DNA of 64,000 nucleotides from NCBI GenBank assembly GCA_964566795.1, contig CAZMIU010000001.1, forward strand, positions 214,789 to 278,788. The letters run 5' to 3'. Below are positions 26,857-44,779 of the stretch, one piece after another (positions within the stretch are counted from its first letter, which is position 1; every line of letters begins with the position of its first letter). A model generated the notes under the pieces. The model did no database searches and was not told the DNA's origin. It was given only the letters and a program-made list of their open reading frames with translations. The position numbers and the translations under genes were made by a program. The stretch is from an uncultured Candidatus Saccharibacteria bacterium (GTDB lineage Bacteria; Patescibacteriota; Minisyncoccia; Phycocordibacterales; SBAW01).

Positions 26857-27492
26857 TCAAAGCAAAGCCGTATAGGAGAGAGAGGCAAGGACCAGATAGG
26901 TAAAGATGGTGGTTACCTTAGATGATGAGAAGAACTTAAACGCGGTGCCCAGCGAGCGCCGGGGAGTGAACGGGTTACCGCCCAGCATATTTTCAGAATG
27001 TATCTCGTCCAGCGCCAGGTGGCTCAAAAATCCTGCCCCTACCGCCGCGGCAAACACCATAGAGAGTGTCTCGCCCTGCTCCAGATGCTTGGCGACAAGA
27101 AACACACTCAAGGAGACGATGCCCATAGCGGGTATCGAGTGCATCATCCCCCTATGCTCGGTAAAGTTTTTAAATATCGCTCCCGCGATAAACCACACAG
27201 CAAAGACCGTTGCGACCGGTGCTCCAATGAGCATGTAGAGCGTCTGGGGCGGGTGCGCAAGCAGGTAGTAGAGCACCACCCCGCCGCACGCGAGTGTAAA
27301 GGTGCCAAAAATAAGGTAAAACGGCGTGCCTGTGTCGTGGTCGAGGTCGGGCAAGAATGAGCCCATAATACTCACAACAAATAAGATACTAAGAAGGAGC
27401 GGGTCTGTCACAATTGCATAAAAGTAGAGCAGTACGACCCCCACCGCGGCGACAATCGCGCCCACGGTTATATGGTCCTTAAACATCGCCAT
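26857..27492 (-). CDS. Membrane-bound metal-dependent hydrolase (DUF457 / YdjM-like)
   Basis: Polytopic. GSFLPDLDHDTGTPFY and HLALDEIH motifs. Confidence 0.7.
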   Translation of the reverse strand: MAMFKDHITVGAIVAAVGVVLLYFYAIVTDPLLLSILFVVSIMGSFLPDLDHDTGTPFYLIFGTFTLACGGVVLYYLLAHPPQTLYMLIGAPVATVFAVWFIAGAIFKNFTEHRGMMHSIPAMGIVSLSVFLVAKHLEQGETLSMVFAAAVGAGFLSHLALDEIHSENMLGGNPFTPRRSLGTAFKFFSSSKVTTIFTYLVLASLSYTALL

Positions 27493-27513
27493 CCGGCTAT
27501 TTTACCCCTGTTT

Positions 27514-27661
27514 GCTGGGAGACTAGGGATCGGTCAGGAATAAATTATACGCCGTCGCGTAGAATTTTTCACGACCCTGCCTCGCTCCCAAGCGTGCTCG
27601 CTTGGGGCCCGCTCCGGCTTTCGATCCCTAGCCGTACGCAACCCCGTTGCGTACTTCTCCC
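27514..27661 (-). ncRNA. tRNA-Gln-derived structured element: tRNA-Gln acceptor ends and 3' T-arm flank a ~125-nt non-tRNA core
   Basis: The 19-nt direct repeat gctgggagactagggatcg appears at 27513-27531 and 27682-27700. The minus-strand read begins tgggaga and ends cgatccctag-tctccca-g, as tRNA-Gln does. It has an 8-bp hairpin gtacgcaa/ttgcgtac and a 10-bp long-range stem ctagggatcg/cgatccctag. It sits between the tRNA-Gln and the hydrolase gene. Confidence 0.4.
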
Positions 27662-27682
27662 ATCTTCATTACTTCGTATTCA

Positions 27683-27753
27683 GCTGGGAGACTAGGGATC
27701 GAACCTAGATTCACGGCTTCAAAGGCCGCTGTCCTACCATTAGACGATCTCCC
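27683..27753 (-). tRNA. tRNA-Gln (anticodon TTG)
   Basis: Cloverleaf tgggaga/tctccca acceptor, anticodon loop ctTTGaa, T-arm ctagg-ttcgatc-cctag. CCA is not encoded. Confidence 0.85.
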
Positions 27754-27860
27754 AATAAGGCCATACTATCAAATCCCCACCCACATTACAAAACAAATTT
27801 AACACCCCGACAAACTTGAGAATGTCAGGATGCTGTAATGGGTAACTTTTTAAAAAAGTC

Positions 27861-28187
27861 TTGGTTTTAATGAGCATGACTACCAACCCGTTTTTGAACG
27901 CCCTTGCGGCTTTTGGCTATATTGTCGCCGTCGTGCTCGCCATATTTTATGCCGGACCGCTTCTTGGCGGGCCCAACGGCGAAGACACCATCTTTATCCC
28001 CATGGCCATGCTTAGCCTGTTTGTATTCTCTGCGGCAACCATGAGCTATATCGTGCTCTACCAGCCCCTGGTACTGTTTCTTGAAAATAAAAAACCGGAG
28101 GCGGCGAACCTCTTCCTTAAAACCATAGGTACTCTGGGCGTCTTTATGGTAGCCCTCTTTGTGCTCCAGCTTGTCTTTGCCCGTTAA
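27861..28187 (+). CDS. Small three-TM membrane protein
   Basis: 108-aa hydrophobic ORF followed by a strong terminator. Confidence 0.5.
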   Translation: MVLMSMTTNPFLNALAAFGYIVAVVLAIFYAGPLLGGPNGEDTIFIPMAMLSLFVFSAATMSYIVLYQPLVLFLENKKPEAANLFLKTIGTLGVFMVALFVLQLVFAR

Positions 28188-44692: not shown

Positions 44693-44779
44693 GCGTCGGT
44701 GGCGGAGTGGTCAATCGCAACTGGCTGTAAACCAGTCGCCCTTGCGGCTACGTAGGTTCGAATCCTACCCGGCGCACCA
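44693..44779 (+). tRNA. tRNA-Tyr (anticodon GTA), type II; CCA encoded
   Basis: gcgtcgg/ccggcgc acceptor (one G-U pair), loop ctGTAaa, long variable arm, T-arm gtaggttcgaatcctac, 3' ACCA. Confidence 0.85.

Follow-up and report, generated by a model that had tools for sequence, protein, structure and literature searches.

A predicted structured unit capped by copies of a tRNA 3′ end, similar in plan to the tRNA-linked repeats of E. coli, in Patescibacteria

The tRNA-Gln locus

The window (the whole 64-kb stretch of DNA that was analysed) carries eight tRNA genes, at 27683, 39843, 41613, 44693, 51883, 52011, 52135 and 52222. The tRNA-Gln(UUG) gene at 27683 lies on the minus strand, and is followed after 20 nt on the same strand by a unit of about 150 nt. 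A gene of the YdjM/DUF457 family (PF04307) comes next, also on the same strand, with its start codon 21 nt past the unit. A conserved gene for a small membrane protein adjoins tRNA-Gln(UUG) in the window and in many relatives. CCA is encoded by only one of the eight tRNA genes, that for tRNA-Tyr (44693-44779); on tRNA-Gln it is encoded in the related contigs L092, L097 and L119, but not in the window. The proteins encoded around the unit have their homologues in Patescibacteria (Kaiserbacteria- or Paceibacteria-like MAGs). We scanned 20 ORFs, from approximately 12.4 to 41.6 kb of the window, and found no integrase or transposase among them. Those that matched a protein family were housekeeping genes (DnaX-like, Dus, SerRS, DprA, TopA, RelA/SpoT, ParB, MiaA and others).

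The 19-nt block GCTGGGAGACTAGGGATCG (plus strand) occurs exactly twice in the window, with 169 nt between the starts of the two copies, as the preliminary description of this DNA had reported. The number of matches expected by chance in the window is zero, even when up to three mismatches are allowed. One copy is the 3′ end of tRNA-Gln(UUG) and the other is the 3′ end of the unit. The 150 nt between them contain no ORF. No further copy of the unit, or of any part of it, was found in the window using 16-mers with up to two mismatches and core motifs, and none is present at its other seven tRNA genes. The positions of all features are given in Table 1.

Table 1. Features of the tRNA-Gln locus, in window coordinates.
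Feature	Position	Strand	Remarks
Gene for conserved small membrane protein	27870..28187		adjoins tRNA-Gln(UUG)
tRNA-Gln(UUG) gene	27683..27754	-	ARAGORN; Rfam RF00005, 63.8 bits; CCA not encoded; last 19 nt are the upstream repeat copy
Upstream copy of the 19-nt block	27683..27701	-	3′ end of tRNA-Gln(UUG)
Spacer TGAATACGAAGTAATGAAGA, 20 nt	27663..27682	-	between tRNA and unit; not kept in L089 or L118
TGGGAGA	27656..27662	-	copy of tRNA 5′ acceptor strand (inverted copy of TCTCCCA); pairs with 27516-27522
9-bp GC-rich hairpin GTACGCAAC-GGG-GTTGCGTAC	27634..27654	-	splits the inverted copy in two; loop GGG
Anti-T strand CTAGGGATCGAA	27620..27631	-	exact reverse complement of tRNA T-loop and T-stem 3′ strand (TTCGATCCCTAG); pairs with 27523-27532
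Interior three-way junction, 87 nt	27533..27619	-	predicted fold
Conserved block AAGCCGGA	27613..27620	-	1 nt shared with the anti-T strand end
Variable hairpin hp1	27584..27612	-	predicted fold
Conserved block GAGGCAGGGTCGTG	27570..27583	-	common to window and L089
Sigma-70-like match GTGAAA-17-TATAAT	27544..27572	-	10/12; within hp2, pointing to YdjM
Variable hairpin hp2	27539..27569	-	predicted fold
Conserved block CCTGAC	27533..27538	-	common to window and L089
Downstream exact copy of tRNA 3′ end, CGATCCCTAGTCTCCCAGC	27514..27532	-	T-loop C56 through the first base after the discriminator
GGTAAAATAG box	27497..27506	-	directly 5′ of YdjM start codon, outside the unit; kept in YdjM relatives that have no unit

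Anatomy and predicted fold of the unit

On the minus strand the unit opens with TGGGAGA, which a single A separates from the 9-bp hairpin; GG then separates the hairpin from the anti-T strand. The interior follows, and the unit closes with the downstream copy, laid out as CGATCCCTAG-TCTCCCA-GC. The anti-T strand pairs with the first part of this copy to give the closing helix P1, a 10-bp stem (CTAGGGATCG/CGATCCCTAG), and TGGGAGA pairs with TCTCCCA to give a 7-bp acceptor-like stem. Thus the unit, which contains an inverted copy of the tRNA end and terminates in an exact direct copy of it, is predicted to close on itself. The inverted copy runs two bases further than the direct copy, to T54, so that it matches the real tRNA over 12 nt compared with 10 nt for the downstream copy.

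Folded as RNA, the 148-nt unit gave -74.8 kcal/mol, compared with -50.1 +/- 3.8 kcal/mol for shuffled sequences (z = -6.5), and none of 200 shuffles folded as well. The proposal of a structured element on the tRNA strand was borne out. The opposite strand folded as RNA gave -69.8 kcal/mol, and z-scores of -8.1 and -7.6 were obtained when the unit was folded as single-stranded DNA. Similar z-scores were obtained for the opposite strand and with DNA parameters, so that folding energy does not distinguish between the strands, or between RNA and DNA, as the form that matters. The only hint at the strand is a conserved G-U pair in the helix P3, on the tRNA-sense strand.

These results change the preliminary description in several respects. 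It had delimited a discrete element at 27514-27661, and a discrete unit is indeed present, but TGGGAGA extends it by one nucleotide, to 27662. The hairpin said to replace tRNA arms exists with 9 bp rather than 8, the 10-bp stem is present as described, and both ends of the unit are derived from tRNA-Gln, as one inverted and one direct copy of its 3′ end. However, the view of the unit as a tRNA whose D and anticodon arms had been replaced does not hold. Only the ends come from the tRNA; direct reading of the sequences revealed no similarity of the interior to the D or the anticodon arm in either orientation, and the interior is instead a predicted, conserved, non-tRNA three-way junction.

The sequence of the unit is identical, base for base, in the Logan assemblies of SRR29476910, SRR29476927, DRR512863, DRR198497 and SRR14271324. 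An assembly artefact, which the preliminary description had raised for the case that the helices were unconserved and the duplication unique to this assembly, is therefore ruled out by at least five independent assemblies, and the helices are kept in related genomes (see below).

Searches for known RNA families and for further copies

ARAGORN called a tRNA only at the tRNA-Gln gene itself, and no tRNA or tmRNA within 27514-27662. Rfam likewise gave only tRNA, both for the whole window at the gathering score and for 27400-27800 at E <= 10. Two of the checks proposed beforehand thus returned the real tRNA-Gln and nothing in the unit, which is not a tRNA; a tRNA pseudogene (RF00005) was rejected for the same reason and because the unit does not have the cloverleaf of D, anticodon and T arms. 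No cis-regulatory Rfam family matched at E <= 10.

Patterns describing the architecture of the unit gave no match in viral contigs or in JGI metagenome contigs. A pattern for the core gave two matches in viral contigs, both of them chance occurrences within GC-rich coding DNA. Nothing related was found by blastn against phage and plasmid records. Searching GTDB genomes through YdjM synteny reached only relatives of up to 56% identity, in which the tRNA is not there, and contigs encoding the proteins P0062, P0056 and P0004 either end at the tRNA or have too short a flank.

Several other candidates were considered and rejected. The order of motifs is wrong for hammerhead and twister ribozymes when checked by eye, and analogies with retrons, omega-RNA guides, bridge RNAs, primer-binding sites and casposons fail because the partner gene is missing or the geometry does not fit.

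Related units in other Patescibacteria

We screened all 44 tRNA genes of the DNA analysed for two features together, their own 3′ end repeated downstream and their own T-loop and T-stem repeated in inverted orientation. Both copies were present in three lineages only: that of the window, L089/L090 and L118/L121. Across these lineages, positions range from +48 to +57 for the inverted copy and from +108 to +151 for the direct copy. In the window species the two copies are at +52 and +151, and the direct copy is identical at 19 of 19 positions. In L089/L090 the unit also follows a tRNA-Gln, one with a different acceptor stem (TGCCCGA/TCGGGCA); the inverted copy is GGGATTCGAA at +48, and the direct copy at +120 reproduces exactly 18-20 nt of that tRNA. 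In L118/L121 the tRNA is tRNA-Ser(GGA), with the inverted copy AGAGATTCGAA at +57 and a direct copy at approximately +109 that has 2-3 mismatches. Thus the anti-T strands of L089 and L118 match the local tRNA there. In all three lineages the tRNA-derived part begins at T-loop position 56 or 57, placing the junction at 55/56 or 56/57.

The window and L089 units were compared by script after they had been split into predicted helices, since MAFFT/RNAalifold had misaligned the 5′ arm. All 27 positions of the junction and the short helices were identical (GAAA, GCC, GGA, GA, GGC, AG, GGTCG and TGACC). Neither internal hairpin shows any relation in sequence between the two units, and the lengths differ too (29 versus 12 nt and 35 versus 27 nt), yet each of them still pairs. 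P1 varies in step with the local tRNA. For comparison, the YdjM proteins of the two genomes are 76% identical. On this comparison the interiors of the window and L089 units are homologous. An invariant junction combined with turnover of the hairpins, at this level of YdjM identity, indicates that the predicted fold is under selection, and argues against an inert scar. Covariation statistics are weak, with three lineages only.

The three-way junction is shared between the window and L089 units, and the L118 unit is a simpler form, which has a TGCG-(A/T)ATTTTC...GAAAAT hairpin in common with L089. The complete acceptor-like helix is intact in the window lineage only, where it is formed with TGGGAGA, a copy that L089 and L118 either lack or have in degenerate form. 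The tRNA-like appearance that had been ascribed to the element in general is therefore not general: the copy of the 5′ acceptor strand and the 9-bp hairpin are specific to the window lineage. L089 (positions 156-200) and L118 (784-835) have a long AT-rich hairpin between the tRNA and the unit, the L089 example being CAAATTTTGATA-TAAACTTG-TATCAAAATTTG, whereas the window has its GC-rich 9-bp hairpin inside the inverted copy. From their sequences, these hairpins may be terminator-like or may be independent palindromic insertions.

The unit is patchily distributed among close relatives. It is missing from L087, whose tRNA-Gln is near-identical to that of L089, and from L085, whose YdjM is 87% identical to that of the window.

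Two further observations concern tRNA-Gln genes. In L170 (1400-1662, minus strand) the real tRNA-Gln at 1591-1662 is followed by a second tRNA-Gln-like copy, broken by two palindromic inserts of approximately 45 nt (CCCCTAGG...CCTAGGG), which lie in the D-loop and immediately after the anticodon. The 3′ end of this second copy, CGAATCCCTATCCCCCAG, differs from the real tRNA at three positions. Judged by its sequence, it may be an intron-bearing gene, or else a duplicate in decay into which small palindromic elements have inserted. L105 (1-365; Logan contig SRR29476910_17755, from the same sample as L001) agrees with window positions 27683-27870 in the flank and over about the first 29 nt of tRNA-Gln. 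Beyond this it has a different 3′ part of tRNA-Gln and then DNA of 36% GC (host 55% GC) with a converging ORF end. We did not count L105 as evidence of a tRNA-Gln island in some strains, because a chimeric k-mer join through the conserved 5′ part of the tRNA fits equally well. Such a join would also account for the many Logan contigs, several of them from different samples, that end inside tRNA-Gln.

The interval between tRNA-Gln and YdjM

tRNA-Gln(UUG) is also found upstream of YdjM in relatives, with varying content in between: RibD_C in L085, TSCPD in L087, two small genes in L089 and the 150-nt unit alone in the window. The genes that follow the unit vary too, two others preceding YdjM in L089 and a different small membrane protein being encoded in L118. 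The gene set 3′ of tRNA-Gln differs in every one of the relatives L085, L087, L089 and L091-L093, and includes TfoX_N, GIY-YIG and VanY together, or a methyltransferase with NUDIX. An identical small membrane protein, P0057, adjoins two quite different tRNA-Gln(UUG) sequences in L091 and L092. Judged by these gene contents, the stretch downstream of tRNA-Gln is a hot spot of gene turnover.

In L084-L088 and L194 YdjM is not preceded by the unit. A GGTAAAATA(G) box 8-10 nt before the YdjM start codon is kept in the window, L084, L087, L089 and L194. Its nearness to the start codon suggests a -10 box and an mRNA with a very short leader or none (a near-leaderless mRNA), and the GGTAAAATAG box of the window is probably YdjM's own -10 box. 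The sigma-70-like match within hp2 is not conserved in L089, and is therefore probably incidental. As the interval between the tRNA and YdjM differs in each relative and YdjM keeps its own GGTAAAATA box, the unit is not a conserved YdjM leader.

Comparison with E. coli tRNA-linked repeats

The tRNA-linked repeats (TLRs) of E. coli, first seen in tyrT in 1978, comprise 22 copies at ten loci, and their hallmark is a 3′ end of 18-19 nt identical to the 3′ end of the upstream tRNA (PMC8144298). Some are transcribed and processed as sRNAs; the literature reports no function except for the three copies in rRNA operons (rrA/B/F), which yield processed sRNAs that bind Hfq and CsrA (PMC8144298). In that work the repeated end was proposed to attract the machinery that also processes the 3′ end of the upstream RNA (PMC8144298). 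A preprint on the mobilome describes an increase under stress in the extrachromosomal coverage of the tyrT-rttR region (10.1101/2024.07.17.603846).

We examined the E. coli K-12 region NC_000913.3 1286200-1288200 (L195) for the same features. The 19-nt end of tRNA-Tyr occurs six times across tyrT-tyrV-rttR, mostly approximately 178 nt apart. In the Rfam consensus of RtT RNA (RttR of the tyrT-tyrV operon, RF00391), which belongs to the TLRs, an inverted copy of the T-stem/acceptor segment (GGGGAAGGAU, at ~+53) forms a closing helix with the 3′ copy (~+153) around two internal hairpins, leaving a free 3′ tail. The E. coli inverted copy, like that of the Patescibacteria units, also reaches toward the T-loop, GGGGAAGGAUGAGAA corresponding to the reverse complement of TTCGAATCCTTCCCC with two mismatches.

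The unit in the window has the same plan, and TLRs are the known class closest to it, which the preliminary description had not recognised. The unit has a closing helix, internal hairpins and a single-stranded 3′ tail in its predicted fold, follows tRNA-Gln by 20 nt on the same strand, ends in a 19/19 copy of the tRNA end (18-20 nt of its own tRNA in the case of L089), and falls within the same length range of approximately 130-180 nt. The spacings are close, with the inverted copy at ~+53 in RtT and +52 in the window, and the direct copy at ~+153 and +151 respectively. In other respects the two differ. The hosts belong to Patescibacteria as opposed to Enterobacteria, the tRNAs are those for Gln and Ser, and the window has a single unit in place of tandem arrays. 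The Patescibacteria repeat excludes CCA, since these tRNA genes do not encode it. The window copy, moreover, has an additional complete acceptor-like helix and an inserted 9-bp hairpin.

There is no similarity in sequence, or to the covariance model, between the E. coli repeats and the units of the window, L089 and L118. RF00391 (gathering score 45 bits) found four matches of 133-138 bits in E. coli tyrTV, which served as positive control. It found no match in the window even at E <= 10, and none in L089 or L118 at the gathering score. As RF00391 scores nothing in the three Patescibacteria loci and no sequence is shared, we regard the Patescibacteria unit, by sequence comparison, as an analogue of TLRs and not as a homologue or a member of RF00391.

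Discussion

A TLR-like, structured unit capped by copies of a tRNA end, with a conserved three-way junction in its predicted fold, is present in at least three lineages of Patescibacteria. The reading that we prefer, with a probability of about one half, is that it is a TLR/RtT-type trailer RNA of about 150 nt, co-transcribed with tRNA-Gln and cut by tRNA processing. The unit would be transcribed within the tRNA-Gln precursor, and maturation of the tRNA-Gln 3′ end would free its 5′ side. Its own 3′ end would then be cut by the same 3′-processing activity, because the same terminal sequence is presented there within a helix. In the window copy the signal for this would be the 7-bp acceptor-like stem stacked on the 10-bp P1 and followed by the discriminator. 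The expected product is a stable, compact RNA of approximately 125-150 nt, in which the invariant nucleotides of the junction are the most likely candidates for a site of partner binding or tertiary folding. The anatomy of the sequence, the fold statistics, the recurrence in three lineages, the kept junction with its changing hairpins and the agreement with the hallmark and consensus fold of E. coli TLR/RtT are observed; transcription, processing and any downstream role are inferred.

RNAs that adjoin or mimic tRNAs and whose ends are set by tRNA-processing enzymes include E. coli 3′ETS-leuZ, the t-elements of plant mitochondria and mascRNA. By analogy, the 7-bp acceptor-like helix of the window unit, stacked on a 10-bp helix and completed by a discriminator base, might be handled similarly. 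Unlike those RNAs, however, the unit has no T-loop or cloverleaf, its T-loop bases being paired, and L089 and L118 have not kept the acceptor-like helix. Several observations speak against a trailer RNA. The helix that would suit RNase P/Z is intact in the window lineage only, the two strands fold about equally well with a single wobble pair favouring the sense strand, occurrence is patchy (L087 and L085 have no unit), and homology to known TLRs is not detectable.

An alternative that we think unlikely, but that accounts for several features, is that the unit is a miniature non-autonomous insertion module which enters tRNA genes at the T-loop and re-forms their 3′ end, in the manner of an att-site module or an empty cassette, and is mobilised in trans. 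The direct copies would then be attL/attR-type repeats, the inverted and direct copies together a DNA hairpin that mimics the target duplex, and the conserved junction a site for a recombinase or host factor. If so, an empty site would read tRNA-Gln directly followed by AAACAGGGGTAAAATAG. Integrative elements that target tRNA genes classically leave a direct repeat of 18-20 nt that begins in the T-loop and runs slightly beyond the tRNA. The unit shares with the attL/attR of such elements (P4-type integrase islands and cis-mobilisable remnants) a repeat of approximately 17-20 nt of tRNA 3′ end that starts in the T-loop, and a locus at which gene content varies. It differs from them in having only 150 nt between the repeats with no integrase or cargo, in containing an inverted copy of the target, and in an interior that is kept as a fold and is not decaying. 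A simple attachment-site remnant was rejected, since the direct repeats enclose no ORF and no integrase was found in the ORFs scanned. In favour of the insertion module, the family occurs at two tRNA identities (Gln and Ser) with direct and inverted copies that match the local tRNA, the junction falls at the same T-loop position in three lineages, the unit is patchily present within an interval whose content differs in every relative, and it folds equally well as single-stranded DNA. It also explains why there is an inverted copy at all. Against it, neither an integrase or transposase among the 20 ORFs scanned, nor a copy in viral contigs or in phage and plasmid records, nor an empty and a filled site within one species was found; the sole apparent strain variant at tRNA-Gln, L105, may be a chimeric contig. 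A unit of 126-169 bp would in addition be very small for site-specific excision, and the complete divergence of the hairpins between lineages argues against recent transfer.

It is rather improbable that the unit is a functionless by-product of local rearrangement, for example a partial tandem or inverted duplication of the tRNA 3′ end, such as might arise if the template were switched at the palindromic T-arm, or the decayed remains of a second tRNA-Gln copy. Decaying tandem copies of tRNA-Gln do occur in relatives (L170), the direct copy of L118 has already drifted, and the better fit of the inverted copy to the real tRNA than to the downstream copy is what templated duplication predicts. 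However, neutral DNA would not retain a junction identical at 27 of 27 positions while YdjM fell to 76% identity and the hairpins turned over. Nor does the interior resemble a D or anticodon arm in either orientation, and the layout recurs in three lineages and in the TLRs of E. coli.

The further suggestion that the unit is a 5′ leader or cis-regulatory RNA of DUF457/YdjM, either riboswitch-like or an attenuator, could appeal to its position 21 nt upstream on the same strand and to the promoter-like match inside it, but is largely refuted, and on the genomic comparison essentially excluded, by YdjM orthologues of 87%, 82% and 77% identity that have no unit and keep their own GGTAAAATA box, by the two genes between unit and YdjM in L089, by the different downstream gene in L118 and by the lack of any Rfam cis-regulatory match at E <= 10.

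If the unit is a trailer RNA, as we favour, it would represent a class that current annotation with Rfam and tRNA finders misses. That the same plan is found in unrelated sequence, and in the reduced genomes of Patescibacteria, suggests that the design is selected or repeatedly generated and is not an enterobacterial oddity. We consider it doubtful, though of interest, that TLR-type units form a phylum-spanning class of small elements that spread from tRNA gene to tRNA gene. Were this true, the mechanism would copy both strands of the target 3′ end, for example through a single-stranded hairpin attachment site that mimics the T-loop-to-acceptor end of the tRNA gene, and the elements would then ride on tRNA processing. 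It would provide a possible account of how the E. coli TLRs arose, and the Patescibacteria family would be the first case in which a conserved recognition module can be separated from target-derived arms. The importance of the finding would grow if a wide survey showed such units to be common or mobile across phyla. In the Patescibacteria units a strictly conserved junction, the candidate binding site, is separate from the arms that track the tRNA, and this gives a handle for comparative and biochemical tests.
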